A stretch of 64,000 nucleotides of DNA from Escherichia coli (GTDB taxonomy: Bacteria; Pseudomonadota; Gammaproteobacteria; Enterobacterales; Enterobacteriaceae), in the NCBI RefSeq assembly GCF_003334305.1, contig NZ_QOWS01000018.1; one strand, given 5' to 3'. A model generated the notes under the pieces. That model did no database searches. It saw only the letters and a list, made by a program, of their open reading frames with translations, and was not told the origin of the DNA. The position numbers and the translations under genes are program-made. The stretch's first letter is position 1; the number at the start of each line of letters is the position of its first letter. Positions 48,561 through 62,617 of the stretch are shown here, piece by piece.

Positions 48561-49802
48561 ATGAACAAAACGCTAATCGCCACAACTGTGGCAGGGATAG
48601 TTTTACTCGCTTCAAATGCTCAGGCACAAACCGTACCGGAAGGCTATCAGCTACAGCAAGTGCTCATGATGAGCCGCCATAACTTACGTGCGCCGCTGGC
48701 GAACAATGGCAGTGTGCTGGAGCAGTCGACGCCGAATAAATGGCCCGAATGGGACGTCCCCGGTGGGCAACTCACCACCAAAGGTGGCGTGCTCGAAGTG
48801 TATATGGGTCATTACATGCGTGAATGGCTGGCAGAGCAGGGGATGGTGAAATCGGGGGAATGCCCGCCGCCAGACACCGTTTATGCCTATGCCAATAGTC
48901 TGCAACGTACCGTTGCGACCGCACAGTTCTTTATTACCGGCGCATTCCCGGGGTGTGATATTCCTGTGCATCACCAGGAAAAAATGGGCACTATGGACCC
49001 AACCTTTAACCCGGTGATCACCGATGATTCCGCCGCATTCAGTGAACAGGCGGTGGCGGCAATGGAGAAAGAGCTCAGCAAACTCCAGCTTACCGACAGC
49101 TACCAGCTACTGGAAAAAATCGTTAACTATAAAGATTCCCCTGCCTGTAAAGAGAAACAACAGTGTTCGCTGGTGGATGGCAAAAATACCTTTAGCGCCA
49201 AGTATCAACAAGAACCAGGTGTTTCCGGGCCGCTGAAAGTCGGCAACTCGCTGGTAGATGCGTTTACTTTGCAATATTACGAAGGTTTTCCGATGGATCA
49301 GGTGGCCTGGGGAGAAATCAAATCTGACCAGCAGTGGAAGGTGTTGTCGAAGCTTAAAAACGGCTACCAGGACAGCCTGTTTACCTCACCGGAAGTGGCG
49401 CGCAATGTTGCGAAACCGCTGGTCAGTTATATCGACAAAGCTCTGGTCACCGATCGCACCAGCGCACCGAAAATTACAGTGTTGGTTGGGCACGACTCCA
49501 ACATTGCCTCTCTGTTAACGGCGCTGGATTTCAAACCGTATCAGTTGCATGACCAGAACGAACGCACGCCGATTGGCGGCAAAATCGTTTTCCAGCGTTG
49601 GCATGACAGCAAAGCCAATCGCGATTTGATGAAAATTGAATATGTGTATCAGAGTGCGGAACAGTTACGTAATGCCGATGCGTTAACCCTGCAGGCACCT
49701 GCTCAGCGTGTGACGCTGGAATTAAGCGGTTGCCCGATAGATGCCAACGGTTTCTGCCCGATGGATAAATTTGATAGCGTGTTGAATGAAGCGGTGAAAT
49801 AA
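48561..49802 (+). CDS. agp: Periplasmic glucose-1-phosphatase
   Basis: 413-aa [22 protein letters not shown] signal peptide and the histidine acid phosphatase motif SRHNLRAPL. Confidence 0.95.
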
Positions 49803-49809
49803 CAGAAAA

Positions 49810-49832
49810 CTCCCCCGCGAGAAGCGGGGGAG
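49810..49832. terminator. Bidirectional terminator between agp and yccJ
   Basis: 9-bp stem CTCCCCCGC / GCGGGGGAG with loop GAGAA, between convergent genes. Confidence 0.8.
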
Positions 49833-49839
49833 TCGCTGG

Positions 49840-50067
49840 TTAAACGTTTTTACGTTCGATGGTCTGTTCGCCCCAAAAAAGCGAATCTTTATCGGTCTTA
49901 GCAAAGGCTTTGACTAACACTTCATCGCTACCTTCTTCCCAAATCTTTTCCGCCATTTTTTCGTCGTACCCGGCGACTTCGAAAATGGCCTCGGCTATTT
50001 CCGGCGACGTATTGCGCAGAGATGCCCATTCACCGACGTGATGAGCTTTCGCTTCTTGAGTTGGCAT
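49840..50067 (-). CDS. yccJ: Small protein YccJ
   Basis: 75-aa [49 protein letters not shown], recognised as YccJ. Confidence 0.93.
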
Positions 50068-50087
50068 GCGTATCCTCCTGTTGAAGA

Positions 50088-50693
50088 TTAGCCGTTAAGT
50101 TTAACTGCCAGACCTGCGACATATTCCCCTTGATAACGAGCAATAGACAGTTCTTCCTGGCTTGGCTGGCGTGAGCCGTCACCGCCTGCGATGGTTGTTG
50201 CGCCGTACGGCGTACCGCCGCGAACCTGTGAAACGTCAAATAATTCCTGCGCTGCGTAGCCAATGGGGACAATTACCATGCCGTGATGCGCAAGGGTCGT
50301 CCAGGTTGAAGTAATAGTTTGTTCCTGACCGCCGCCAGTACCGGTGGAACTAAAGACGCTCGCCAGTTTTCCGTATAGTGCGCCGGAAGCCCACAGGCCG
50401 CCCGTCTGGTCGAGGAAGGTACGCATTTGACCGGACATGTTGCCAAAGCGGGTAGGTGTACCAAAAATAATGGCGTCGTAATCGGCCAGTTCTTGCGGGG
50501 TTGCAACCGGTGCAGTTTGCGTTTTACCGCCTGCTTTTTCAAATAATTGCGGCGGCATGGTTTCCGGTACACGCTTAACGACAACTTCTGCGCCATCCAC
50601 TTTGCTTGCACCCTCAGCGACTGCGCGTGCCATCGTTTCAATATGTCCGTACATGGAATAATAAAGCACTAGTATTCTTGCCTTAACACTCAT
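50088..50693 (-). CDS. wrbA: NAD(P)H:quinone oxidoreductase WrbA with an element-encoded substitute N-terminus
   Basis: The 201-aa ORF is identical in pattern to recalled WrbA from [21 protein letters not shown] onward. It begins MSVKARI instead of the K-12 MAKV. Those first codons and the GGAG RBS lie inside the inserted element (50670-50705). Confidence 0.9.
50663..50669. repeat. attL junction core (AAAGCAC)
   Basis: This is the last bases matching the wrbA sequence as recalled (GTGCTTT on the gene strand). The sequence diverges from 50670. Confidence 0.75.
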
Positions 50694-50744: not shown

Positions 50745-52388
50745 ATGAAGCTGCTAGTGACATACATCAGGTGGAGTACTAAAGAGCAAGACTCAGGAGA
50801 CTCCTTAAGACGACAAACAAACCTCATTGATGCTTTCTACTCTAAGCACAAAAACGATTATTACCTTCTTCCTGCTCACAGATACGTTGATAAGGGTAAA
50901 TCTGGTTTTCACCAGCAACATAAGAATCAAGGTTCTGACTTCAGACGTATGTTTGAAAATGTTATGTCTGGGGCTATTCCAGAAGGTTCCCTGATTGTTG
51001 TAGAGAACTTTGACCGCTTCAGTAGGGCTGATATCGACACAGCTATAGATGATGTCAGGCAGATACTGAGGAAGGGAGTCTCTATACTGACTCTGGGAGA
51101 TGGTGAACTCTACGACAAGTCAGCATTAACAGACCCTGTGAAGCTGATTAAGCACATCATCATAGCTGAGCGAGCACATCAGGAATCTCTTGTTAAACAA
51201 AAGCGTATAGCTCAGGTCTGGAACCATAAAACACAGCTTGCAAGAGAACTTAAGAAGCCTATGGGTAAGCAAGCCCCCGGATGGTTAGAGCTATCAGAAG
51301 ACGGTTCACACTACATCGTTGATGAAGATAAAGCGTCACTGGTGAATATCATCTATGACAAGCGTCTTTCTGGTATGTCGATGTTTGCTATCTGCAAATG
51401 GCTAAACGAACAAGGTTACCCGACCATTAATCAGCGTAAGGTCAGAATATCCAAGACTAAGAAACCGGATGGTAACTGGTCAGCTTTAAGCGTTAAACAC
51501 ATCCTGACTTCACGAAGTGTATTAGGTTACCTTCCCGCTAAGATTTCTACAGAAGACCGTAAAACAGTGTTACGTGAAGAAATTGAAGGGTTCTATCCTC
51601 AGATTGTCACAGATTCTAAGTTTTACGCTGTACAGCAACTGTTAGAGGAAACAGGGAAGGGGAAAACATCCAGCGGTGACCACTGGTTATACGTGAACAT
51701 ACTGAAGGGGCTTATCCGTTGTAAGTGTGGGCTTGTAATGACTCCTACAGGGATACGTAAACCCGTTTATCAAGGTACTTACCGTTGCAATGGTAATAAG
51801 GAGTCCCGTTGTAGCTACGGTACAGTGTCCAGAAAGTTACTTGATACACAGCTTTGTAGTCGTCTGTTTAGCAAACTGTCACAGCTACACGATGAAGCTA
51901 CCGATACAGCTAAATTAGATGAACTACAAAGAAGATTAAACACCGTTGATGGTGAACTGGAAAAACTCACTGAGACGCTGATACAGCTTCCTAACATCAC
52001 TCAGATTCAAGAAGCACTACGGGTTAAACAGGAAGAAAAAGATGAACTGATAGTTCAGTTATCACGAGAAAAGGCGAGGGTAAAATCTGTATCAAGCTTG
52101 GATTTAAGCGGTCTTGATATGGAGTCTGTAGAGGGGAGAACTGAAGCCCAGATTATCATTAAGCGTCTGGTGAAAGAGATTGTTGTTTCTGGTAATGAAA
52201 AGCTGGTGGATATATATCTTCACAATGGAAATATGATTCGTGGTTTCCCTCTTGATGGTAAAGATGACCACACCTTAACGCTTGAAGAAGCAACCGATGA
52301 GATGCAGTCACTAGATGATATGCTTATTTTTGGTGAACCAGTAACAAGGATTTATCCTGCTGGTGATATGGAAGAGGTGGACGCTTAG
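50745..52388 (+). CDS. Large serine recombinase (integrase)
   Basis: 547 aa. N-terminal catalytic domain with YIRWSTKEQ (Ser nucleophile) and [11 protein letters not shown] recombinase domain, Cys-rich zinc-ribbon-like segment (CKCG...[14 protein letters not shown]) and a coiled-coil-like C-terminal region ([22 protein letters not shown]) follow. Confidence 0.88.
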
Positions 52389-53173
52389 TATTTTTTATTA
52401 GGGTTCACTGAGTACTTTTTAAGCTTTGAAGCTACTCGACCAGCGTTACTATTAGCATTGGTGACGTTGGTTTTTTCAGCTTCTGTTAAGTCTGAATAGT
52501 CCAGCTTCCAAGCCTTATTACACTTAATCTGAGCATCGAGAATATCATTTCTGATAGCTGGAGCGTAACCGGATACATCGCTAATACTCATTAGCTCTTT
52601 GCACGATAGCATAGGCGCGTTATTGCGTTCAGTGGTCACGTTACCTGCATTCTTCTTACTGGTCACACCACCATCATTCGTAGTCGCGGCTTTTCCAGTT
52701 GCAGCCGAGATATCAGTCTGCCCCACAACAGCTTTGAAGTTAATTTCCTGAAAAGTTAGTTGGATTCTTAATCCGTTTGAAATTCCAACATCTTTAGAGG
52801 CTTTAAAACTTGTGATAATGGAATCATCAATTTTAATTCCGTCTTTACAGATGACAGAAATAATCTGCTTCTGGTCACGCCAGTTTTCCAGAGTGTCAAT
52901 GAAGTTCTCTACTAATTGACCCTGACGAGTTAATAGTAAGCTTCCTTCATAACCAACTACAACGACACCACTGATAGTGATTGTTCTGGGTGCTCTTTGA
53001 ACATTATCTGTGACGGTTTGCCCTGATTGCATGTTCTGTGTAGTCACCTGCATAGGGCTATCAAATTCCATATTTTCAGTTGCTGATAAGGTTAAGAAGG
53101 CATCTACATTATCTCTTAAGTGGAAGTAAACGCCATCTTTGCCACTGTAGCGGATTTGATTGCTAAAAATCAT
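52385..53173 (-). CDS. Putative distal-tail/baseplate (Dit-like) protein
   Basis: Start set at ATG 53173, with AAGGAG six nt upstream, rather than the track's TTG at 53194. It lies immediately downstream of the tape-measure gene. The segment [34 protein letters not shown] resembles, from memory, the N-terminal pattern of Dit-like tail proteins. Not verified. Confidence 0.45.
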
Positions 53174-53190
53174 TAAATTCTCCTTTGATT

Positions 53191-53234
53191 TCAAAGGCTT
53201 AGTGTATTTTAATCATTTTTAACCAAGCCTTTGA
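53191..53234 (-). promoter_or_regulatory. 5'-leader hairpin preceding the Dit-like gene RBS
   Basis: Perfect 10-bp inverted repeat TCAAAGGCTT (53191-53200) / AAGCCTTTGA (53225-53234) with a 24-nt loop, between repeat cassette R1 and the RBS. Confidence 0.5.
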
Positions 53235-53253
53235 TATATAAGTATTTTCTCTG

Positions 53254-53323
53254 TTAAGCGTGAGCTACGTAAATTCTATTTTTCAGTGCGGGTATTAACT
53301 TTGCTTTATTCACGTAGAACACC
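53254..53323 (-). promoter_or_regulatory. Repeat cassette R1 (promoter-like) upstream of the Dit-like gene
   Basis: 70 bp, about 88% identical by eye to 55517-55586. On the gene strand it carries TAGAAT (complement of 53273-53278) with no good -35, plus CTACGTGAA and TACGTA boxes. Confidence 0.55.
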
Positions 53324-53329
53324 GTTAAA

Positions 53330-55498
53330 TCAATCATCTTCTGGGAATGATGAACTTAATAACGTAGCTTCTGCATATTGGTCGTAGATATTACTGCTAA
53401 AGGTCATAAAGCTGGTTTCATCTGGTTTAATGGCAACTTCACCACCAAGTGAAACTTTCACAGGCTCCTGAATACGCTTACTTAAAGCAGAGATTTCATC
53501 CCTCAGACCCTGAATATCTGCACTCGTTAATGCTGAATCTTGCTTAATGTTGTTTAATTCTGGATGATTGAATCTTGCAATATTCATTGTGGCATTGTTA
53601 AACAATTCACCCATTGAACTAAAAATTCTACTCCATCCTTCGTTAATCACATTCGGTTTATTAGGGTCACCAGAATACACAGGATTAAAGTCACTACCCA
53701 CACCTACCCCAGATGGATGCATATTAGCGTTTTTGACTACTTCCTGATTCATAAAATCCAGTGCTTTCTTCAATGCATATAAACCAAGAGTGACACCTCT
53801 GATTTGTGGAATCATTGAAGCTAATGCTAACGCTGTTTCATAACCGTCATCAGCATAACCAATTGCAAGAGCACTACCTACACCACCAGCTACACCTTTC
53901 AGTTTTCCACCACCTTTACCAGTAGCTACCTGACCAGCCACCTGATTAGCTCTTGTACCTAACGTTGTGATTGCTCTTGTCAGGTTCATAACCCCTGTAG
54001 TAGCACTGAATAGTGTCTTTGCAGATAACGCTATAGCAAGACCTTTGACGAAGTTGATAAATCCATCACCGACTTCATCAAGTAGCTTTCGCTTAGTGTC
54101 ATCAAGGCTGTAATAGGTCTTCTTAATCTGTAGAATCCAGCCTTCAAGGTGATTGTTAAAGATACGGATGTCATCTACACCAGCTTTAAGCATGTCGATA
54201 AGTCCACCGATAGCATCACCAGCGATAGAAGAACTCATACCCATTTCACTAAGCAGGTTACTCAGGCTGGATAAGAAGCCATTTAGCTCATCCTGTGAAC
54301 CTGAGAAGATTTTCACCATCGTATCATCCCAGTTGTTAGCCAGTTTCCCTAAAGCTGTCTGAGTGCTCTTAGCGACTTCAGCCCAGCCACCCGCTTTATC
54401 AATCATCAAGCCCATCTGTTTAGCGACTTTAGGGAGAGTATCACTACTTAAAATCTTCCCGTCTTTCATCGCTTTATCAAGCTCTGTAGCAGTCATACCC
54501 AGTGCTTCAGCGAATAGCTTAAATGCACCAGCCATACGGTCACCTAACTGACCACGAAGCTCTTCAGCCTGAATCTTGCCCTTGCTCGCCATCTGCTCAA
54601 ATGCTTTCAAAATGCCGTTTAGCTCATCGTTAGAAAGCCCCATTAAGCGACTCATAGCCGTTGCATTACCAAATAGCTCCTGTGTCTGTTCCTGTGACAT
54701 AGAACCCTGAGCACCTGCTGCAAACTTAGCGTAGCTTGATAGCCCTTCAGAGATATTAAGACCTGTCTTGTCTGCTAAATTTCGAATAAATACCTCAGCT
54801 TCAGATGCTTTATCACCAAGTACAAACTTAGCGGCTCTCTGTGCGGAATCTCGTTTAAGACCTGCATTCATGATGGCCTTGTAAGCGTTAAGAGCACCCA
54901 TCACAGAGTAAAATGCACCAGATAACTTGATTGCATTGCTTGCAAGATTATTAAATGCGTCGCTTGTATTGTTAATGCTGGTGGATGTATGACCTTTAGC
55001 TTTAGCAATTGCTTCTCTGACTGAAGCATTTAACTGAGTCAGCTTCTCATTGAATTTTGAAGAATCCATTGACCCAGCTTTAGCAGATAGCCCGTAAAAC
55101 TGAGATTTGATGTATTTCTGCAAAATAGGGTCAAAGCCTTTTAGCTTAGACATATTAGCTGAGTAAGCCGCTGTGATTGCTCTGTTGCCGCTAATTCGTG
55201 GCTGTCTTGGTTGTCTAAGTGGCTTTAAAGTGTCATCAATTTCCGTTTTAATCTTAAACGCTCTAGTGTTTTTAAGACGCTGCTCAATCTTGGAAACAGT
55301 TTTATCGACATTCTTTTCCATTAGTTTGAGAGAATCATTTAAAGGCGTAGGGTTAACTCTGAATGCCTTATTTAGTCGTTTCTCAATTCTTGATGCGATT
55401 TGCATCGTTTGTTTCTCGGCTTTTTCCAAGCCTTTTAAAACTTTCTGAGAGCTAAAACTTAGCTCAATCAAAAAATCATCAACTTTAAATTGTGCCAT
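53330..55498 (-). CDS. Phage tail tape-measure protein
   Basis: 722 aa, Ala/Gly/Leu-rich and predicted largely helical. The segment LNGILKAFEQMASKGKIQAEELRGQLGDRMAGAFKLFAEALGMTATELDKAMKDGKILSSDTL matches the conserved tape-measure core domain as I recall it (TIGR02675-type). A Gly-rich tract GKGGGKLKGVAGGVG follows. RBS is AAGAGGTG. Confidence 0.85.
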   Translation of the reverse strand: MAQFKVDDFLIELSFSSQKVLKGLEKAEKQTMQIASRIEKRLNKAFRVNPTPLNDSLKLMEKNVDKTVSKIEQRLKNTRAFKIKTEIDDTLKPLRQPRQPRISGNRAITAAYSANMSKLKGFDPILQKYIKSQFYGLSAKAGSMDSSKFNEKLTQLNASVREAIAKAKGHTSTSINNTSDAFNNLASNAIKLSGAFYSVMGALNAYKAIMNAGLKRDSAQRAAKFVLGDKASEAEVFIRNLADKTGLNISEGLSSYAKFAAGAQGSMSQEQTQELFGNATAMSRLMGLSNDELNGILKAFEQMASKGKIQAEELRGQLGDRMAGAFKLFAEALGMTATELDKAMKDGKILSSDTLPKVAKQMGLMIDKAGGWAEVAKSTQTALGKLANNWDDTMVKIFSGSQDELNGFLSSLSNLLSEMGMSSSIAGDAIGGLIDMLKAGVDDIRIFNNHLEGWILQIKKTYYSLDDTKRKLLDEVGDGFINFVKGLAIALSAKTLFSATTGVMNLTRAITTLGTRANQVAGQVATGKGGGKLKGVAGGVGSALAIGYADDGYETALALASMIPQIRGVTLGLYALKKALDFMNQEVVKNANMHPSGVGVGSDFNPVYSGDPNKPNVINEGWSRIFSSMGELFNNATMNIARFNHPELNNIKQDSALTSADIQGLRDEISALSKRIQEPVKVSLGGEVAIKPDETSFMTFSSNIYDQYAEATLLSSSFPEDD

Positions 55499-55516
55499 TG
55501 TTCATATTTCACCTCT

Positions 55517-55586
55517 TTAAGCGTGAGCTACGTAAATTCTATTTTTCAGTGTGGGTATTAGCTTTACAGATTTCACGTAGCACACA
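55517..55586 (-). promoter_or_regulatory. Repeat cassette R2 (promoter-like) upstream of the tape-measure gene
   Basis: Second copy of the 70-bp cassette. TAGAAT (complement of 55536-55541) lies about 38 nt upstream of the TMP ATG, directly downstream of a terminator. Confidence 0.55.
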
Positions 55587-55616
55587 TAGGATTCGATAGA
55601 AGACTATCTCATATAC

Positions 55617-55656
55617 AAAAAAGGAGAGTTACCGATGTCACTCGATAATCTCTCCC
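55617..55656 (-). terminator. Rho-independent terminator ending the 236-aa/71-aa transcription unit
   Basis: On the minus strand, GGGAGAGATTA...TAACTCTCC forms a hairpin (stems at 55650-55655 and 55623-55628) followed by a T6 run (55622-55617). Confidence 0.7.
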
Positions 55657-55699
55657 GTAGATTTTTACCCAACCAATTCTATTAGAAGCTAATCTCAAA

Positions 55700-55915
55700 T
55701 TAATGGTAAACGTAAGAATACATCCCATCATCACCTAAAATCTGTGCGTCACATGGTAATTTATCTAAGCACCATGAAGGAATCTTACGTACCTTTGGTT
55801 TATGTGAGGTGATAACTTGATGCTGATTTTTAATTCGTAGCTTTGGTTTAGTCTGAAGCTTTAAGTTCTCACAAACAGACTTAATAAGTTCATAGCGTTC
55901 TGTTAAATCAATCAT
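55700..55915 (-). CDS. Hypothetical protein (71 aa)
   Basis: ORF MIDLTERYELIKSVCENLKLQTKPKLRIKNQHQ... with RBS AAGAGGTGG. No family recognised. Confidence 0.6.
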   Translation of the reverse strand: MIDLTERYELIKSVCENLKLQTKPKLRIKNQHQVITSHKPKVRKIPSWCLDKLPCDAQILGDDGMYSYVYH

Positions 55916-55938
55916 TCACCACCTCTTTTAATTCATAG

Positions 55939-56649
55939 TTAAAGTGCCTTGCTATATTTCTGAGAAATCTTCACTAACTGCTCAATATCAGCCTGCATAG
56001 CAATCTTCTTCTGCGTTTCATATGCAGAAATAAGCTCTTTCATAGCCTGAAGCTCTCTTGAGAGATACAACTTAACATTTTCAAGTTGCTTGTTACGTGA
56101 TGCCAAGATGTTCTGTCTGGCAAGTTCAGCGAGTTCTTCATCGCTCTTATTAGTCGTGTAAATAAACTGACCAGCACCCCTTGAAGCTTTAACCATCTTC
56201 ACAATTCGATATCCAGCAGGAAGACTACTAATCACGGCTGCGACGTTTTCTTGAAAAGTACCAAAACCATCATTGTCTTCGTATGTGAAGTAAACATACG
56301 GCTTCTGTGACAATTCATCCTGAATCTCAAATTCTGACGGCTCAATAGCTGATTGCATCAGGGTAACTTTACTGTAAGCATCATCTAGTTTAATACGCTG
56401 TGCTTTTAGCAGTGGGTAATATTCACGCTCAAGCTCAAGTAATGCTTCAGTTTTGCATACATCAGGCATCTCTTGAGGCTCAGGAGACACAAAGATGATT
56501 TCCTTTGGTGACATTCGGATTTCTTGCTCAAGCTTAATTCTTTCATCGTGTTCTTTACGCTGAATAGCGATAGCTGGATGTTCAGTCTGTGGCGACCAGT
56601 CACCGAAGCTATCAATCACTTTGCCATTAATGTAAATATCATTTGTCAT
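55939..56649 (-). CDS. Hypothetical protein (236 aa) with a coiled-coil-like C-terminus
   Basis: ORF MTNDIYINGKVIDSFGDWSPQTEHPAIAIQ... with RBS GAGGAA. The C-terminal 70 aa are heptad-rich (LENVKLYLSRELQAMKELISAYETQKKIAMQADIEQL). No family recognised. Confidence 0.7.
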   Translation of the reverse strand: MTNDIYINGKVIDSFGDWSPQTEHPAIAIQRKEHDERIKLEQEIRMSPKEIIFVSPEPQEMPDVCKTEALLELEREYYPLLKAQRIKLDDAYSKVTLMQSAIEPSEFEIQDELSQKPYVYFTYEDNDGFGTFQENVAAVISSLPAGYRIVKMVKASRGAGQFIYTTNKSDEELAELARQNILASRNKQLENVKLYLSRELQAMKELISAYETQKKIAMQADIEQLVKISQKYSKAL

Positions 56650-56679
56650 TGTTTTTTCCTCTTCTAAGCTAAAGTATTT

Positions 56680-56765
56680 CAGTTTTTAAAAAGCACACCT
56701 GACAGCCTATCTAAACTTAGAAGAGACTTAAAAGGCGGTTTGCCAAGTATGCTTTTTAAAAGCTG
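56680..56765 (-). promoter_or_regulatory. Long inverted repeat in the leader of the 236-aa gene
   Basis: Arms CAGTTTTTAAAAAGCACAC (56680-56698) and GTATGCTTTTTAAAAGCTG (56747-56765) are complementary at about 17 of 19 positions, separated by about 48 nt. Confidence 0.5.
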
Positions 56766-56801
56766 AAAAAGCCCTAGATAACTAAAACGCTATAAAGGGC
56801 T
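56765..56801 (-). terminator. Attenuator-like hairpin plus T-run inside the leader
   Basis: On the minus strand, AGCCCT (56801-56796), a 20-nt loop, AGGGCT (56775-56770), then TTTTT (56769-56765). Located about 115 nt upstream of the 236-aa gene start. Confidence 0.4.
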
Positions 56802-57008
56802 AAGGTGAAGAAATTAAAACATCTAAAGGATTCAATAACGAATGAACAAAGACTTTTCGAGATAGCCTCTCAGGTTGTATAAGAGGCCATGTAGCGAAAA
56901 GCATTGCACCTTTCAGAATGTTCGGTATAGAACATACCTCACCAACTCAGAATATCCATCCATCGGATTATTGAAATAAATAAGAGAGAAATTCTCTCTA
57001 TAATTAAA

Positions 57009-57037
57009 ATTATGTCATGCTTAAGGTTATTTGTCAA
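57009..57037 (-). promoter_or_regulatory. Sigma70-type promoter (minus strand)
   Basis: TTGACA (complement of 57032-57037), a 17-bp spacer, then CATAAT (complement of 57009-57014). Followed at about +3 by the palindrome AGAGAGAA-A-TTCTCTCT (56983-56999). Confidence 0.55.
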
Positions 57038-57062
57038 CAGCTTTTTAACAGATTGGTAACAT

Positions 57063-57128
57063 TTATACTTTAATAGATGCACCTGCAATCATACCAATCA
57101 ACACAAAACAGAGAATCACCAATTCCAT
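57063..57128 (-). CDS. Candidate 21-aa hydrophobic peptide
   Basis: Hand-translated: MELVILCFVLIGMIAGASIKV. Its ATG overlaps the TAA of the upstream gene (TAATG), suggesting translational coupling. Confidence 0.4.
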   Translation of the reverse strand: MELVILCFVLIGMIAGASIKV

Positions 57129-57451
57129 TAATGCACCACCTTCGAATCCGTAACCAGAATATTATCGCTGTACAAAATTGCTATAGCCGCCTTGAGATAT
57201 TTTTCAGGGCTAACGCTGTATTTGTTCGTTTGCTCGACAACCAATCTTTTCATGTTGCTGTCTTTAATTGGTAGCATCATTCGAGGCTCGTTAAACTCCA
57301 CCGACTGAATAAAGTCAGAGATGCTTTCCGCATTATCAGTCATTAACTCTAACAACTTATCAAAGTCAATGCTAACACCTACATCAGTGAAAGCCTGAAT
57401 CATCATGGCGGTGTCGGTATCAATAAAAATCTGTAATTCGTAATTGTTCAT
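57128..57451 (-). CDS. Hypothetical acidic protein (107 aa)
   Basis: Start set at ATG 57451 (MNNYELQIFIDTD) with AAGGAG upstream. The track's TTG start at 57484 is rejected. No family recognised. Confidence 0.65.
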   Translation of the reverse strand: MNNYELQIFIDTDTAMMIQAFTDVGVSIDFDKLLELMTDNAESISDFIQSVEFNEPRMMLPIKDSNMKRLVVEQTNKYSVSPEKYLKAAIAILYSDNILVTDSKVVH

Positions 57452-57606
57452 TTTTAAAATCTCCTTTTTACCAGACCTCCTCAATCGCTCTGTAACGAGC
57501 TAAACAGTCTTTTTCAGGGGTAGCCTGTACAGTGGTATTACCCACCCTAAAATAAGATAGTTTTTTGCGTCAGAATGCGATTGAGAGCGTCTGAGAAGCT
57601 GTTTTT

Positions 57607-57894
57607 CTAATTTCTCTTAAAGTCTCGGACTTGCATAAGATTTTTTGGTCTGGTATCGGCTCTGTTACCATTTCGATGGATAATTTGCTTGTTGGATTGA
57701 TAGCCATGATAAAGAAACCAGACAACATATTTCACGTAGAAAGTATATCGGCCTATATTAAATGTTTTGTTGCCGTAGTCGTCGGTGTTTATCGTGACTG
57801 ACTCTCCATCAGACCAGCACAGGGAATCACTGGATTCATCATAGATAAGGTGTTCTGCAAAATATCTTCTAACATCTTCATTCCAAGGTTTCAT
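57607..57894 (-). CDS. HNH-like small protein (degenerate motif)
   Basis: 95 aa. YVVWFLYHGYQSNKQIIHRNGNRADTRPKNL resembles the HNH_3-type pattern (aHRlvw...G..idHiNGn..DNR..NL), but the usual Asp preceding the His and the DNR Asn are substituted. Confidence 0.5.
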   Translation of the reverse strand: MKPWNEDVRRYFAEHLIYDESSDSLCWSDGESVTINTDDYGNKTFNIGRYTFYVKYVVWFLYHGYQSNKQIIHRNGNRADTRPKNLMQVRDFKRN

Positions 57895-58106
57895 AAAACC
57901 TCCTCACCCCAATAACCTAATTCAATCTTGTGACGCTCAAACCATTCCGGTTTAACTGCTGTTTTCAGTACTTCATTTGGGCCAATGGCTTTAATGAAAA
58001 TATCTTTTGAGTTATGGATGTCACCGAATCCGTTTCCTTCAATCAGGAGGTCGGAGATGTAGCGAATCATTTTATCCGTGTGGTATTCAAAGGTAACGCA
58101 TAGCAT
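57891..58106 (-). CDS. Hypothetical protein (71 aa)
   Basis: ORF coupled at both ends: TAATG with the upstream gene and ATGA with the downstream gene. No family recognised. Confidence 0.6.
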   Translation of the reverse strand: MLCVTFEYHTDKMIRYISDLLIEGNGFGDIHNSKDIFIKAIGPNEVLKTAVKPEWFERHKIELGYWGEEVL

Positions 58107-58387
58107 TAAACCTCCAGAGACAGCTTGTGAATCTTAAGACTCAATAGACGGGCAATATCAATTTTAAAGCCGTTAAGTCCCTTCAAAGTATCTAAAGCGT
58201 CCTGAGTAATTCGGATGTGTTTACGACCTTTAGAGACTGGATATTTAAGTAAATCCGACTCAGTAACCTCTTTAGCAATTGCAAGCTGCATAACAGTCTG
58301 ATGAGGTAAGTTAGTAGCTCGTTTAATTCTGGCAAGCTCGTTAAAAGCTTCCTCTGAAATGCGGGTTAAAGTGTGTTTGTTTTTCAT
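58106..58387 (-). CDS. Putative tandem ribbon-helix-helix DNA-binding protein (93 aa)
   Basis: Two internal segments look like an RHH beta-strand plus helix: KHTLTRISEEAFNELARIKR and RKHIRITQDALDTLKGLNG. Inference from the pattern only. Confidence 0.4.
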   Translation of the reverse strand: MKNKHTLTRISEEAFNELARIKRATNLPHQTVMQLAIAKEVTESDLLKYPVSKGRKHIRITQDALDTLKGLNGFKIDIARLLSLKIHKLSLEV

Positions 58388-58388
58388 T

Positions 58389-58943
58389 TTAAAATTCCTC
58401 TGTAACTAAATACGGGTCAAATTCAAAGTCTGGTTCACTGGTTGTAAGGCTGATATTTCCAACTTCCGCATGATGATTAATTGTCTCAATAACTTTCATG
58501 CAAATAGTGGCTAAGTTAGCGCAATATTTATCACTTGGTAATTCGTAGCTAAGTCTGGTTGCTTGTCTTTGAAGATGGCTCGTCACTGTGCTTGAACTAA
58601 TCTCATCAAGACTTCGCAGTAAATAAAAAACCTTCCGGTGATAATTATCTCTTCCAAGACTGCGACAAGTACCGATAATTACATCTTCAATTCGTGGCGG
58701 TAATTGCTCGTAAGAATCAAAGCCCATCAAGAAAGTTTTTAAAGTATTCTCTTTTTCTTTGCGTGCTGGCATAAATCTGTCTCGTGGCGTAATGCTACGA
58801 ATGACCGCTTCAATGTTCTTACGTTCGGATTTGCTAAAGGTTGGGACTTCGTAGCTGGTGGGGGTGTCTGTGTGGCTGTAACCGTTGTGTCTGTTGCGTT
58901 CTCTTGATGCCTGAAGCATCGCTCTAAATTCTCTGTCGTTCAT
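58389..58943 (-). CDS. Hypothetical protein (184 aa), first gene of the leftward operon
   Basis: ORF MNDREFRAMLQASRERNRHNGYSHTD... directly downstream of the promoter at 58994-59022. No family recognised. Confidence 0.65.
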   Translation of the reverse strand: MNDREFRAMLQASRERNRHNGYSHTDTPTSYEVPTFSKSERKNIEAVIRSITPRDRFMPARKEKENTLKTFLMGFDSYEQLPPRIEDVIIGTCRSLGRDNYHRKVFYLLRSLDEISSSTVTSHLQRQATRLSYELPSDKYCANLATICMKVIETINHHAEVGNISLTTSEPDFEFDPYLVTEEF

Positions 58944-58993
58944 TCATAAGCTAGTCCTTATAATTGTTAATTCTCTGTTAACTTATATATACA

Positions 58994-59022
58994 ATACTAG
59001 CATTTTCAAAGACTAATGTCAA
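58994..59022 (-). promoter_or_regulatory. Sigma70-type promoter of the leftward operon
   Basis: TTGACA (complement of 59017-59022), a 17-bp spacer, then TAGTAT (complement of 58994-58999). Confidence 0.6.
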
Positions 59023-59029
59023 GCATTTT

Positions 59030-59059
59030 TTAACATTTCATTAACATCTGTGGTATAAT
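59030..59059 (+). promoter_or_regulatory. Divergent extended -10 promoter (rightward)
   Basis: TTAACA (59030-59035), then TGG-TATAAT (TG at 59051-59052, TATAAT at 59054-59059). Back-to-back with the leftward promoter. Confidence 0.55.
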
Positions 59060-59186
59060 GGTTCTATGGGGAGAGTAAAATATAAAGGCGTGGCTATGAG
59101 GTTTATTCGATAGGGGTTGGTACAAGCCCAACCAACCGAATCAACTATGTATGTCACATGGTATTGCATTGCACACAGGAAATTTA

Positions 59187-59363
59187 ATGGTAAATCTCCC
59201 TCCTGAACTGGGGTCACCTGATGTATGGGCTGGTGGAGGTATCGGGCTGATTGCAGGTCTGTTACTCCGCTACGTCCTTGTCAGAGTGCTTGTTGTGTTC
59301 CGATTGTTCGGTCGTACATGGACGCTTGACCTTAAGGATAATGAGCACACAGAACCCCGTTAA
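59187..59363 (+). CDS. Candidate small membrane protein (58 aa; 70 aa if started at 59151)
   Basis: MVNLPPELGSPDVWAGGGIGLIAGLLLRYVLVRVLVVFRLFGRTW... contains one hydrophobic helix. AGGAA lies 5 nt upstream of ATG 59187, while the ATG at 59151 has no RBS. The local composition is more GC-rich than its neighbours. Confidence 0.45.
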   Translation: MVNLPPELGSPDVWAGGGIGLIAGLLLRYVLVRVLVVFRLFGRTWTLDLKDNEHTEPR

Positions 59364-59406
59364 GCTCCCTTCAAATCCCCCTGTACGAGATGGCATAGGG
59401 GTGTCT

Positions 59407-59422
59407 TTAGCATTTTGTGCTA
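59407..59422. promoter_or_regulatory. Operator-like inverted repeat TTAGCA-N5-TGCTA
   Basis: TTAGCATTTTGTGCTA. The 18-nt box TCTTTAGCATTTTGTGCT (59404-59421) recurs at 60678-60695, and each copy is followed by (A)CTTGACA(G/A)AA. Confidence 0.45.
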
Positions 59423-59483
59423 TCTATTAAAAAATAACTTGACAGAACCGGAAAGCTGTATCTATCAGGTATTCACCTCTCTG

Positions 59484-59559
59484 ACAGTAACTTCTAAAAG
59501 TTCTTATTTTTCAATGAGTTGTAATCACCCATATATAGAGAACTGACAAGTCTCTTCAC
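59484..59559 (+). repeat. 76-bp direct repeat, copy 1
   Basis: ACAGTAACTTCTAAAAGTTCTTATTTTTCAATGAGTTGTAATCACCCATATATAGAGAACTGACAAGTCTCTTCAC. About 89% identical to copy 2, and the last 31 nt are identical. Confidence 0.9.
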
Positions 59560-59578
59560 AATTAACTCTGTAACCTTA

Positions 59579-59654
59579 ACAGTGATTTCTAAAAATGCTT
59601 ATTTTTCAATAAGTTGTAATTAGCCATATATAGAGAACTGACAAGTCTCTTCAC
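59579..59654 (+). repeat. 76-bp direct repeat, copy 2
   Basis: ACAGTGATTTCTAAAAATGCTTATTTTTCAATAAGTTGTAATTAGCCATATATAGAGAACTGACAAGTCTCTTCAC. The period is 95 bp. Confidence 0.9.
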
Positions 59655-59971
59655 GGAGAACTTCCTGGACTCACTAAGATACAAGGCGATAACCCCAGAA
59701 AGGGAGAGCCACCTTCTAATTGGTATTGTTATGAGGATGCTTCATCCGAATCATCTACCAATCCCTAAACCGACTTCTTAAACAATCTTTACAGACCCCG
59801 TTCACCAGTCTCAATATTTTTATTTCTCGCTCTTCGTTTGTTGCTCGTTTCTATTATTGAGGGGGTTTGAAAAACCTCTGTAAAATAACCCTTCCAGTAA
59901 AAAGCGAATAACCCCAGAGAGGGGGAATCGCCTCTTTAACATTCTCATAATCAGTGCTCTATATGAGAATT

Positions 59972-60640
59972 TCAGCCCAACCTTTGAACAATCTTGTAAG
60001 TGGTGCTTAGAGGCATTCTTAGCGATTCTGCGATGCTCTTGACGGATTGCCCTTGGCCATGCAGTTTAATCAGCCTGTCAAGCGTCTGTGCATCGTGTAT
60101 ATGAGGTCTTCCACGTAAACCACCCCTGTTAACCACGGCAAGTAAAAGCATTGTGTCGCCACAATAGATTGTTTGTGTAACTTCAACCTTCGGTTTACGG
60201 GGTGTGTTCCTGTATATCAAAACGCAACTTGCAAACGGTGAACGCACTACAACACCTTTCTTCCCTGCTGGTGGAAGGTATTTGACTGCTCGGTGTAACG
60301 TTCGAATCTCATGCAGAAAGGGGTTTGTATATACACACCGAAGCCAGTAAGTTGTCTTTGACCTGTGCGGAACCAGACATACACACACATCAGCTTCATG
60401 GGATTTTAGGAGGAACCTTTCAGCCATGCTAAACGGCGGGTTAACGAAGACCCGTTCACCAACCCATGATTGATTGTGAATATCATCGGTGAACCGTGGC
60501 AACAATGCGTCATGCTCAGTTGCAGCACCATCCATCGAAAAACCAAATTCACGGTGTAGGTTACGAAATAAACGATACGGTGTACGCCAGTCATCAGAAC
60601 CACCATGATAACGACCGACATTGATTATTGGATGTGACAC
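59972..60640 (-). CDS. Phage Dam-type N6-adenine DNA methyltransferase fused to a C-terminal HTH
   Basis: 222 aa with a GTG start. SDDWRTPYRLFRNLHREFGFSMDGAAT and VFVNPPFS (NPPF catalytic motif) fit the phage Dam family (pfam05869-like, from memory). The C-terminal GQSVKSIAESLRMPLSTTYKIVQRL looks like a resolvase-type HTH. Confidence 0.75.
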   Translation of the reverse strand: MSHPIINVGRYHGGSDDWRTPYRLFRNLHREFGFSMDGAATEHDALLPRFTDDIHNQSWVGERVFVNPPFSMAERFLLKSHEADVCVCLVPHRSKTTYWLRCVYTNPFLHEIRTLHRAVKYLPPAGKKGVVVRSPFASCVLIYRNTPRKPKVEVTQTIYCGDTMLLLAVVNRGGLRGRPHIHDAQTLDRLIKLHGQGQSVKSIAESLRMPLSTTYKIVQRLG

Positions 60641-60677
60641 AAGCGAAGCGCCCCTCTTAGTATATTTCTTAATCGTC

Positions 60678-60724
60678 TCTTTAGCATTTAGTGCTTTTTG
60701 TTAAGTTTAGCACTTTTTGCTAAA
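60678..60724. promoter_or_regulatory. Two operator-like inverted repeats upstream of the methyltransferase gene
   Basis: TTAGCATTTAGTGCT (60681-60695) and the perfect TTTAGCA-CTTTT-TGCTAAA (60706-60724), followed by TTGACA at 60735-60740. Confidence 0.45.
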
Positions 60725-61142
60725 GACAAAACACTTGACAAAATGGTAAGATTGTTCACATGACCTTACTTAACAGATTCTTAAGAGCTTTGAAACGAAC
60801 TGTTTAACAAGGTCACTACCTCTGGTCTTATCGTTCCCTCTCTTCTTGGTAGTTCTGTTAAGTATCTTTTCAGGTATCTCTTACAGTCACTGTTAAGATA
60901 GAACCTACCTTCGGTTTCATGGTTCTCTTCCTCCCGTTAAATATCCCTTCACAGTCAGACTAAATAACACCTCTGTAGTTTCTTGGTAGAATCTTTCAAG
61001 GTAACTTAACTCTGAGTTTATGAAGTTGACCTTAGTCAATGTTTGTGAAGGTGTTACAGAGCATGTTCTCTAGGTCTGTGTAGCTCACTAAGCGAGAGAG
61101 GGGATATGTGACCATAGGGGAACCCCTCCTGTTAAAAGTTTC

Positions 61143-61170
61143 TTGATGTTATCATCACAATATGTATAAT
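61143..61170 (+). promoter_or_regulatory. Sigma70-type promoter (plus strand) in an ORF-free region
   Basis: TTGATG (61143-61148), a 16-bp spacer, then TATAAT (61165-61170). Confidence 0.55.
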
Positions 61171-61176
61171 CACCAA

Positions 61177-61337
61177 CTGTACAGACACCTTAACGGTTTC
61201 TCTACACCTCACTATGGCTAGGTAGGGTATGGTTTAGCTTGGTACGGCTAGGTTAGGTCTGGTTTGGTTAGGTATGGGTGGATTGTCGTAGCCACGTTAA
61301 AAATCGACTTATAGGGACTCTTTCGGGAGTCCTTTTT
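61177..61337 (+). ncRNA. Candidate ~160-nt small RNA with tandem 15-nt G/T-rich units
   Basis: Bounded by the promoter at 61143-61170 and the terminator at 61315-61337. It contains no ORF longer than 5 codons. Five consecutive 15-nt units begin at 61216, 61231, 61246, 61261 and 61276 (GGCTAGGTAGGGTAT / GGTTTAGCTTGGTAC / GGCTAGGTTAGGTCT / GGTTTGGTTAGGTAT / GGGTGGATTGTCGTA). Confidence 0.35.
61315..61337 (+). terminator. Rho-independent terminator (plus strand)
   Basis: GGACTC (61315-61320), loop TTTCGG, GAGTCC (61327-61332), then TTTTT (61333-61337). Confidence 0.65.
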
Positions 61338-61541
61338 AGTTTGTATAAAATCTGTACAGGAGTTATCAGGCTTCTAAAATTTTTATAAAAAATAATCAGA
61401 CCTCTTCTAAGCCTCTTCAACCAAATCTTTCGAAAATATCTGACAGATGTCTGTAGCTGCTAAGTACCCGTCACACCAGCTATGTGACCCCCTTGGCAAA
61501 AAAGCCAAATATCAGCTACATCCATGTAACTATTCAGTAAC

Positions 61542-62093
61542 TTATTTAGCAAGTCTGTAATAAGTTGCTCTAGAGATTCCTAACTCTTCCTGAATCTGCA
61601 ACCTCGTCTTACCTTGTGAAATAAGCGTCTGTACAGCCTCTGAAGAAGCCTTTACAGGCCTCCCCATATGTACCCCTTCAGCTTTAGCACGTTCAATACC
61701 AGCCTTTCTACGCTCTGCTATCAAGCTTCTTTCAAGCTGTGCCAACGTTGACATAATGCCTAACATTGCTTCACCCATAGCGCTTGATAAGTCAAACCCT
61801 TCTCTAAGGCTGATAACTGTCACACCTTTAGCCTGTAGCGCTTTAACCGTTGATAACACATCAATTGTGTCACGTCCAAGACGGTCTACAGCTACCACAA
61901 CTACGGTGTCACCTTCTCGTGCATAAGCTAACAAACTACTGAAACCGTTTCTTAAAGAAGCTTTGACAGAACCACTGACAGCTTCATCAGTGAACCATTT
62001 AGCAATGTTGTACCCTGCCTCTTCAATTTGCATTTGCTGGTTAGTGATGGATTGGTCATCTGTACTCACCCTGCAATATCCAAGTATCGCCAT
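61542..62093 (-). CDS. Small serine recombinase (resolvase/invertase family)
   Basis: 183 aa. MAILGYCRVSTDDQ (Ser nucleophile), VVAVDRLGRD, an E-helix LAQLERSLIAERRKAGIERAKAEG, GRP, and a C-terminal HTH ISRATYYRLAK. Confidence 0.9.
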   Translation of the reverse strand: MAILGYCRVSTDDQSITNQQMQIEEAGYNIAKWFTDEAVSGSVKASLRNGFSSLLAYAREGDTVVVVAVDRLGRDTIDVLSTVKALQAKGVTVISLREGFDLSSAMGEAMLGIMSTLAQLERSLIAERRKAGIERAKAEGVHMGRPVKASSEAVQTLISQGKTRLQIQEELGISRATYYRLAK

Positions 62094-62107
62094 ACATCCC
62101 CCTTAGA

Positions 62108-62231
62108 AGTCTCAAAAGTTAGTCTCATAAGTTTAGCTGTCTCATAATCCAAAAACAACCTTTTGAGACTACTTGAGGGTGCATTCTACCGTTACGTTGA
62201 AAGTGTCTCAAAAGGAAGTCCTTTTAAGACT
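62108..62231. promoter_or_regulatory. res-like cluster of recombinase binding sites
   Basis: There are six GTCTCA / T(G/A)AGAC half-sites. They include a 28-bp inverted pair TGTCTCAAAAGGAAGTCCTTTTAAGACT (62204-62231), a 33-bp inverted pair TGTCTCATAATCCAAAAACAACCTTTTGAGACT (62138-62170), and AGTCTCAAAAGTTAGTCTCATAA (62108-62130) next to the recombinase start. Confidence 0.6.
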
Positions 62232-62427
62232 GGTTATGAAGGAGCTATGAAGATTTTAGGAGGGTAACTATAACCATCACTTTCTAACTTTCACGTAGGA
62301 AATCGTTAAGTTTCTTGATAGTTACACCATGTGACCAACTATCTATATATCGTTATATAGCCCTGTATATAACACTTTTCTAGGAGTCGAGAGAGGGACG
62401 ACTAACACGATACAGTTTACCCTGAAA

Positions 62428-62447
62428 AGAGACTTCACAGATTCTCT
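62428..62447. repeat. Inverted partial third copy of the 76-bp repeat core
   Basis: AGAGACTTCACAGATTCTCT compares with the reverse complement of AGAGAACTGACAAGTCTCT (59537-59555 and 59632-59650). It is flanked by TCTCTATATAT and TTCAATAAGTT, which are also shared with the repeats. Confidence 0.7.
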
Positions 62448-62610
62448 ATATATTTCAATAAGTTAGGCTAAAAAGAGACTATACCGATACTGTATAGAAT
62501 CTGTGTAGAATTGCTTAGATACTTGGAAAAATGCCTTTAAATTGAATAGGTACTAACCTGTTTATGTCCTGTTATTAACAGGTAGTTGAATGTACGTGTT
62601 TAGCTATGTA

Positions 62611-62617
62611 AAAGCAC
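62611..62617. repeat. attR junction core (AAAGCAC)
   Basis: Identity with the native wrbA 5' end as recalled resumes here (AAAGCACCAGAACTTTAGCCAT is the complement of ATGGCTAAAGTTCTGGTGCTTT). Confidence 0.75.

Follow-up and report, generated by a model that had tools for sequence, protein, structure and literature searches.

A probable solitary VIPR guide RNA gene on a candidate satellite of Felix-O1-like phages in Escherichia coli

Between positions 61143 and 61339 of the window (the whole 64-kb stretch of Escherichia coli DNA analysed here) lie a promoter, tandem G/T-rich repeats and a terminator. What is transcribed from this interval, and what might the product do? A preliminary description had taken it for the gene of a non-coding RNA, complete in itself, on a mobile element interacting with helper phages, and this stood, as all three parts of such a gene are present (Table 1). 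The sigma-70 promoter that it proposed, TTGATG-16-TATAAT, matches the consensus at 10 of 12 positions and is one of the two best promoter-like sites within 59800-62300. The terminator was confirmed as a stem-loop at 61313-61334, with nine pairs, a UUCG loop and a T run after it. In related elements at other loci (hereafter sibling satellites), the promoters keep their type while the sequence shifts (TTGACG..TATAAT in L032, TTGACA..TAAGAT in L033 and TTGATA..TAAGAT in L011), and the terminator is retained with small changes in the stem and, in L031, an insertion in the loop. The statement that no reading frame exceeds five codons holds for ATG starts but not for GTG: a GTG-initiated frame of 36 codons starts at 61278 and crosses the terminator. 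This frame is not gene-like, and neither is any of the stop-free stretches of 16-30 codons present in the interval. The fold of minimum free energy of the 164-nt transcript pairs the array with itself; it is not significant (z = -1.23) and not conserved. An Rfam scan of 56000-64000 (E up to 1) gave nothing relevant, only two weak unrelated matches elsewhere in that region, and a scan of ten array-bearing loci gave nothing relevant either. One weak Rfam match, sroD-like, lies on the plus strand between ymdF and rutG (63187-63258; 25.6 bits, E = 0.12, under the gathering score) and resembles an ordinary terminator hairpin. Judged from its sequence, the interval 61143-61339 is a real, functional-looking small-RNA gene, known in kind.

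Table 1. Features of the small-RNA gene. Positions are those of the window.
Feature	Position	Strand	Details or basis
Sigma-70-type promoter	61143..61170	+	-35 TTGATG 61143-61148, spacer 16 nt, -10 TATAAT 61165-61170
Transcription start	~61177	+	inferred
Predicted 5' leader of primary transcript	61177..61212	+	kept in most sibling satellites; differs in L032
vrRNA guide tract, 12 YNNGG/NNGGY pentamers and anchor unit AUGGG	61213..61278	+	pentamer profile, in-phase count
Invariant 3' tail, modelled H-type pseudoknot	61274..61308	+	pairing counts across tail types
Tail stem S1	61278-61281 (GUGG) : 61292-61295 (CCAC)	+	H-type pseudoknot model
Tail stem S2	61285-61288 (GUCG) : 61305-61308 (CGAC)	+	H-type pseudoknot model
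Intrinsic terminator	61313..61339	+	stem 61313-61321 : 61326-61334, UUCG loop, then U run

We then asked what the repeats are. They had been described as five consecutive 15-nt units, or two 30-nt units. The five strings quoted are found exactly in the window from 61216, and the identity between the 30-nt units (23 of 30 positions, 77%) was reproduced. Yet neither length is the true unit: the period is 5 nt (NNGGY), with 12-13 units. The autocorrelation of G in the tract is 0.68, 0.66, 0.66 and 0.63 at lags of 5, 10, 15 and 20. Over a 76-nt tract, GG occurs in phase 12 times and GGY 11 times, whereas 20,000 shuffles that preserved the dinucleotides gave a mean of 4.66 and at most 9 for GG, and a mean of 3.04 and at most 7 for GGY. 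We found no comparable in-phase periodicity elsewhere within the 64-kb window. Tandem Repeats Finder reports only a weak 15-nt period in the interval (score 39). The two variable positions of successive units read AT TA AG AT TT TT AC TA TA CT TT TA (AT), the last being the anchor unit.

The period bears on the suggestion, made in the preliminary description, that the layout is that of a type III antitoxin RNA (ToxI-like). The order of promoter, repeats and terminator is indeed similar, and a pseudoknot follows the repeats. Type III antitoxins (ToxI, CptI, TenpI) have repeat units of ~34-46 nt, whereas the units of the window are 5 nt long and vary at two positions instead of being near-identical copies. 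Moreover, as had been noted from the start, no toxin gene follows on the plus strand; the next gene encodes a serine recombinase on the minus strand. We find an antitoxin hardly credible. A CRISPR array would have direct repeats of ~23-47 nt and unique spacers of similar length, and there are no such repeats in 59500-62600.

RNAs made of such pentamers have recently been described. VIPR, a CRISPR-like RNA-guided DNA-binding system of phages, was reported in June 2026 (bioRxiv 10.64898/2026.04.26.720920). Its protein, Vipr, is an ancestral RAMP protein of ~20 kDa, and its guide RNAs (vrRNAs) consist of 9-16 YNNGG repeats, with a conserved GGY and hypervariable NN, and of an invariant 3' tail that forms a pseudoknot in the SUSP1 clade (bioRxiv 10.64898/2026.04.26.720920). 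In the model phage, Felixounavirus SUSP1, the vrRNAs are ~100 nt long when mature and co-purify with Vipr; the complex represses transcription and recognises double-stranded DNA by its NN pairs, skipping one base in each unit (bioRxiv 10.64898/2026.04.26.720920). The same preprint places 18 of 20 targets of SUSP1-clade vrRNAs on a satellite sharing structural genes with SUSP1, reports that some satellites encode their own vrRNAs, without mention of a vipr gene in them, and proposes that VIPR predates CRISPR (bioRxiv 10.64898/2026.04.26.720920).

The RNA of the window is one of these satellite-borne vrRNAs. It has 12 YNNGG units and an anchor, within the published range of 9-16, with the conserved GGY and variable NN, and its positions 61274-61308 form the invariant, structured tail. 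As this kind of RNA was first reported in a mid-2026 preprint, the window RNA is not new. Our search of the literature on non-coding RNAs, repeats and satellites of Felixounavirus gave no account of the RNA apart from the VIPR preprint. It resembles the type II vrRNAs of SUSP1 in the number of units, in the pseudoknotted tail, with the same S1 and loops, and in its length of ~100 nt. It differs from them in four respects. The window gene is solitary and has a sigma-70 promoter and a strong terminator of its own, while those of SUSP1 are in an array by vipr and vap. The window element has no Vipr gene. The S2 stem is GUCG:CGAC instead of UGGUAG:CUACCA. Finally, the predicted target of the window guide is a sibling satellite, not the target set of the helper on its satellite.

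How widespread is this module? About 120 Ounavirinae records have an intergenic region similar to the segment 61213-61310, at 70-88% identity. The flanks of these loci are near-invariant and the G/T-rich tract differs even between close relatives. When viral contigs were scanned for six GGT units in phase, arrays proved to be widespread in unrelated viruses; there they lie between genes and mostly run in the direction of their neighbours. We built a pentamer profile from 654 units of 58 distinct modules (16 phage loci and 6 satellites). Positions 1 and 2 are variable, position 3 is G in 84% of the units, position 4 is G in 98%, and position 5 is T in 89% and C in 11%. The tracts of the 58 modules have a median of 12 units, contain no indels and are always in register with the tail. 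The repeats are hypervariable at NN alone and the flanks are conserved. Some details of the viral arrays vary. In a Rhodococcus prophage (L193, 5112-5668), the first four of five arrays each end in a minihelix resembling a tRNA T-arm (GGTTCGATTCC); in L109 (2217-3406) more than ten arrays are separated by AATGAATTTAATTT; in L198 (2707-3907) each array is followed by a GC-rich hairpin of its own. A (G)GYAUGGG motif at the array ends is often common to distant clades.

One protein family, of roughly 165-250 aa, adjoins the arrays in 23 of 32 array-bearing loci. Conversely, when homologues of the protein were picked blind to the arrays, arrays were adjacent in three of four distinct genomic contexts. 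The Felixounavirus member of the family, garuso_12, has 195 aa, belongs to PHROG 4652 (function unknown) and has no Pfam match. The AlphaFold model of the partner protein (34-sequence alignment) has a pLDDT of 94.7, and its best matches in the PDB are all RAMP proteins of CRISPR systems: Csm3 (Foldseek E = 8.6e-5), Cas7-11 and Csf2. As modelled, the helper protein has the features given for Vipr, i.e. a single RRM core with a glycine-rich loop, a Cas7-like fold, a size of ~20 kDa and a position beside vrRNAs. In locus L015, one vrRNA is followed by vipr (98% identical to garuso_12), vap (99% identical to garuso_11) and three further vrRNAs, which is the gene order given for SUSP1 (bioRxiv 10.64898/2026.04.26.720920).

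These features invite comparison with other RNAs coated by proteins. Like the crRNA of class 1 CRISPR systems with a Cas7 backbone, a vrRNA is expected to be coated periodically by a RAMP protein (Cas7/Csm3 fold), joins a variable guide to a constant handle, and pairs with its target with interruptions at regular intervals. Unlike the crRNA, which has a period of 6 nt and five guide bases per unit, it has a period of 5 nt and two guide bases per unit; furthermore, the vrRNA system lacks a repeat-spacer array, adaptation genes and a PAM, and its carriers are viruses and satellites. With orphan CRISPR arrays and RNA anti-CRISPRs (solitary repeat units), too, only the RNA half is placed on a phage or other mobile element, which depends on, or interferes with, the protein of another genome. 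Here, however, the donor of the protein would be the helper phage and not the host, and an inhibitory role is hypothetical. The trp leader RNA of Bacillus, bound by TRAP, carries 11 (G/U)AG triplets spaced by 2-3 nt. Like a vrRNA, it is single-stranded, its conserved triplet recurs at intervals of about 5 nt, and an oligomeric protein binds it with one subunit per repeat; but TRAP has an unrelated fold, the leader is not a guide and its spacer bases are uninformative. Several earlier ideas on the tract were superseded by the association with Vipr: a TRAP-like or gp32-like operator; a ribosome standby site or anti-Shine-Dalgarno sponge, or pairing with tRNA CCA ends or tRNA-Gly; two-tier G-quadruplexes, arrays of primase sites, GT-rich DNA preferred by Chi/RecA, and an R-loop origin.

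The tail offers a further line of evidence. Four tail types differ by compensatory changes. The S1 stem is GUGG:CCAC, GUAG:CUAC or AAGG:CCUU, and S2 is UGGUAG:CUACCA, AGUCUCA:UGAGACU, UAAUCGGA:UYCGAUUR or UGGCAG:CUGCCA in phages and GUCG:CGAC in the satellite. In an ungapped alignment, pairing is 100% in S1, with three of four pairs changed on both sides across tail types, and 90.5% in S2, with five of six pairs so changed; slid alignments used as control give 26-48% paired. The model was derived from the same sequences used for these counts, which come from few independent lineages, and the compensatory changes are thus support rather than proof for the pseudoknot. The window tail has the same S1 (GUGG:CCAC) and the same loop sequence (UAGCCACGUUAAAAAU) as the type-A tails of the helper. 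Its loop 3 is A-rich (GUUAAAAAU), as across all tail types. The S2 of the satellite has 4 bp and is weaker than the 6-bp S2 of the helper tail.

Could the interval act as DNA, i.e. as iterons, a packaging site or an R-loop (transcription-primed) replication origin taken over from the helper? Past the promoter, the non-template strand is rich in G, the satellite has no replication genes, and further non-coding blocks resembling those of the helper are present in it, with CTTAACAG-type repeats and an A/T-rich stretch. Yet the structure of the tail is strand-specific and backed by compensatory changes, the arrays are co-oriented with transcription, and a 5-bp period sets successive units on opposite faces of the duplex. 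The hairpins between phage vrRNAs contain several G-U pairs (as read by eye), which would fit RNA, and the phage copies are ~100-nt RNAs that co-purify with Vipr (bioRxiv 10.64898/2026.04.26.720920). The iteron or packaging site raised in the preliminary description is contradicted by the pseudoknot and by the orientation of the arrays, and we regard a DNA-level element as very improbable.

Which genome carries the gene? The window is chromosomal DNA of E. coli and shows 100% identity to strain A7 (NZ_CP028767.1), in which the gene is at about 1862850-1863050. The gene lies in an integrative element of ~12 kb inserted between wrbA and ymdF (~50745-62600). The element encodes a large serine integrase, a Dit-like baseplate protein, a tape measure protein, an HNH protein, several small unknown proteins, a Dam-like methylase-HTH fusion and a small serine recombinase. 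Other strains carry this set of genes elsewhere in the chromosome, at yciI and yecN; between the elements, the methylase and the small recombinase are variable cargo, and ~2 kb of non-coding DNA are conserved. The Dit-like protein shows 76% identity to proteins of Felixounavirus; the gene encoding it has 90.6% nucleotide identity to garuso_119 over 519 nt. The tape measure protein is 29-33% identical to its Felixounavirus counterpart. A tblastn search of the satellite open reading frames against the garuso genome retrieved these two genes only. Because the element has Dit and tape measure genes related to those of Felixounavirus, and neither capsid nor replication genes, we infer that it is a candidate satellite of virulent Felix-O1-like phages. 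It appears to be the satellite mentioned in the VIPR preprint.

When all open frames of 40 codons or more in the window were searched with hmmsearch (--max), no homologue of Vipr was found (best E = 3.2), and the locus lacks the pair of vipr and vap genes. Hence the RNA is a member of the vrRNA family and the locus is not a complete VIPR system. The vrRNA module is kept in satellites at no fewer than three chromosomal sites and in E. albertii; this species was the one true additional host in a scan of genome contigs with a degenerate tail pattern, in which nearly all matches were due to chance. This conservation bears on whether the gene is an inactive relic, i.e. helper DNA captured by recombination and of no current use to the satellite. 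Satellites did exchange DNA with helpers, as indicated by the Dit-like gene and by a shared non-coding block of 60 nt. A relic is nevertheless quite improbable, as across those sites and E. albertii the module has kept its promoter, an uninterrupted in-phase array and its terminator while NN and copy number vary, and the tail in each satellite has a compensatory change in its stem.

The reading that we favour, with a probability of about 0.85, is that the interval is the gene of an orphan VIPR guide RNA (vrRNA), carried by a Felix-O1-like satellite without vipr and presumably used with the Vipr of the helper. What might its target be? The preliminary description had proposed to search for contiguous complements of the ACCTA(A/G)CC type. 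This is the wrong search, because by the published rule the target is read by the NN pairs alone and one base is skipped in every unit. We therefore scored targets by this 1-nt-skip rule, on a small panel of satellites (~15 alleles). Real guides had an NN match of at least 0.8 in 52 of 282 guide-satellite pairs and of at least 0.9 in 18. Permuted guides reached 0.8 in 2 of 312 pairs (six satellites) and 0.9 in none, and never exceeded 0.81. Two phage guides match satellites perfectly (26/26 and 24/24).

The best match of the window guide is a non-coding site in the sibling satellite L032 (9700-9734), with 21 of 24 NN positions (88%). This score is reached by 2 of 1000 permutations of the guide (across six satellites), the guide being A/T-rich, which raises background scores. 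The L032-type site scores 19-21/24 with the window guide in nine sibling-satellite alleles, with 20 or 21 in seven and less than 80% in two. A tenth satellite, L205, with a near-identical guide, gives 18/24 at its own copy of the site, and the near-identical guide of L031 gives 22/24 at the L032 site. There is no perfect target for the window guide in the satellites examined, nine further alleles giving at most 21/24. On this small panel, the guide has a site matching at 80% or more of the NN positions and no self-target: the best score in its own element is 17/26, which is not above background, and the block holding the target site did not align to the element. This block is present in 290 of 5426 complete E. 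coli genomes. Other satellite guides also match sibling satellites (L033 on L031, 0.90; L011 on L032, 0.83). Among viral contigs, an exact pattern of the ten 3'-most NN pairs had a single match (L200), in an unrelated A/T-rich contig, which we took as due to chance. The target site lies ~80-115 nt downstream of a promoter-like site on the minus strand, GTGAAA-16-TATAGT, that faces leftward satellite genes; the same hexamers are also present in the window at 62294-62267.

Under the orphan-guide reading, the host RNA polymerase would start at the sigma-70 promoter and stop at the intrinsic terminator, and the satellite would make the RNA alone. Since the satellite has no vipr gene, loading would presumably be by Vipr brought in by an infecting Felixounavirus helper. 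The satellite tail keeps the S1 stem and loops of the helper type A. The loaded guide may then bind the non-coding site in competing sibling satellites. As the promoter-like site faces leftward satellite genes and the target lies downstream of it, the bound complex could be a roadblock to the genes of the rival, and such binding would hinder rivals in cells or populations that hold several satellites. One strain may be a natural setting for satellite-versus-satellite targeting: E. coli ET120 (NZ_CP101001.1) has two satellites of the family (L201 and L205), one at yciI with the vrRNA gene and one at yecN without it. Its near-identical guide scores 20/26 on the rival satellite and 19/26 on its own site, which is weak discrimination.

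Guides of the helper in turn point to the window satellite. Helper vrRNAs have predicted sites on it at 50766-50794, 53219-53247, 57247-57278, 58492-58529 and 58975-59006, with NN matches of 0.88-0.95; these fall in the start of the integrase gene, at the junction of the Dit and tape measure genes, in an open reading frame of 107 aa, and around one of 184 aa and its upstream region. Such matches, together with the 18 of 20 SUSP1-clade targets located on a satellite (bioRxiv 10.64898/2026.04.26.720920), leave some room for a decoy. The satellite RNA, expressed constitutively and resembling a guide, would soak up the Vipr of the incoming helper and weaken its satellite-directed vrRNAs; the NN bases would matter little. 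A strong host-type promoter and a terminator of its own could make the RNA abundant before infection, the tail loops are those of the helper, and the matches of the guide to its targets are imperfect. However, the NN pairs fit the site of the sibling satellite better than 998 of 1000 permutations, which is unexpected for a pure decoy, and other satellite guides find sibling sites as well. The stoichiometry is also poor, since a single gene of the satellite would face 3-5 vrRNA genes of the helper, whose genome replicates. We thus consider a decoy unlikely as the main role, albeit compatible with guide function, alongside which it may act. Of the ideas in the preliminary description, the protein sponge came closest, in that the RNA seems built for coating by an oligomeric RAMP protein, Vipr, but as a guide rather than only a sponge. 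There is likewise a minor chance that the orphan vrRNA is mainly an RNA anti-VIPR, made in advance, that captures helper Vipr as soon as it is synthesised and might redirect it against rival satellites. Were this true, anti-VIPR would be a counter-defence by guide mimicry in a conflict between helper, satellite and satellite, which the VIPR preprint does not propose (bioRxiv 10.64898/2026.04.26.720920).

Returning to the orphan guide, its interest would be that a satellite programmes the machinery of its helper to act on competitors, or else disarms that machinery. The locus offers a natural example of a guide carried alone by a genome without the protein. It also makes a compact model: the gene has 160 nt, the helper clade is known, and the predicted target of 35 bp is present in 290 sequenced E. 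coli genomes. Genes of vrRNAs are unannotated in RefSeq and have no Rfam family, and can be recognised by a simple test for in-phase NNGGY.

The element has other features that may deserve attention. A non-coding block at 60804-60861 is common to the helper (81.7% over 60 nt). In garuso it lies inside a 1.65-kb region free of open reading frames (48952-50603) and full of CTTAACAG, CTAACAAG and CTGTATAG repeats, beside an A/T-rich 'aaaatttttataaaa' stretch. A stretch like the latter follows the vrRNA terminator in the window (61350-61400). With these helper-like blocks, the satellite may have copied an origin or some other cis element. Two direct repeats of 57 nt (59503-59559 and 59598-59654; 95% identical, 95 nt apart) lie within a non-coding block conserved among satellites (58900-59780). 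The methylase (59972-60640, minus strand) is a Dam-like N6-adenine methyltransferase with a C-terminal resolvase-type HTH, and is absent in several sibling elements. The small serine recombinase (61542-62093, minus strand) is of the invertase family; L033 has a different recombinase gene, in the opposite orientation relative to the vrRNA. An inverted repeat of 21 nt (60854-60874 and 62421-62441, 90% complementary) brackets both the vrRNA gene and the recombinase gene, and the segment inside it could be invertible or exchangeable cargo.
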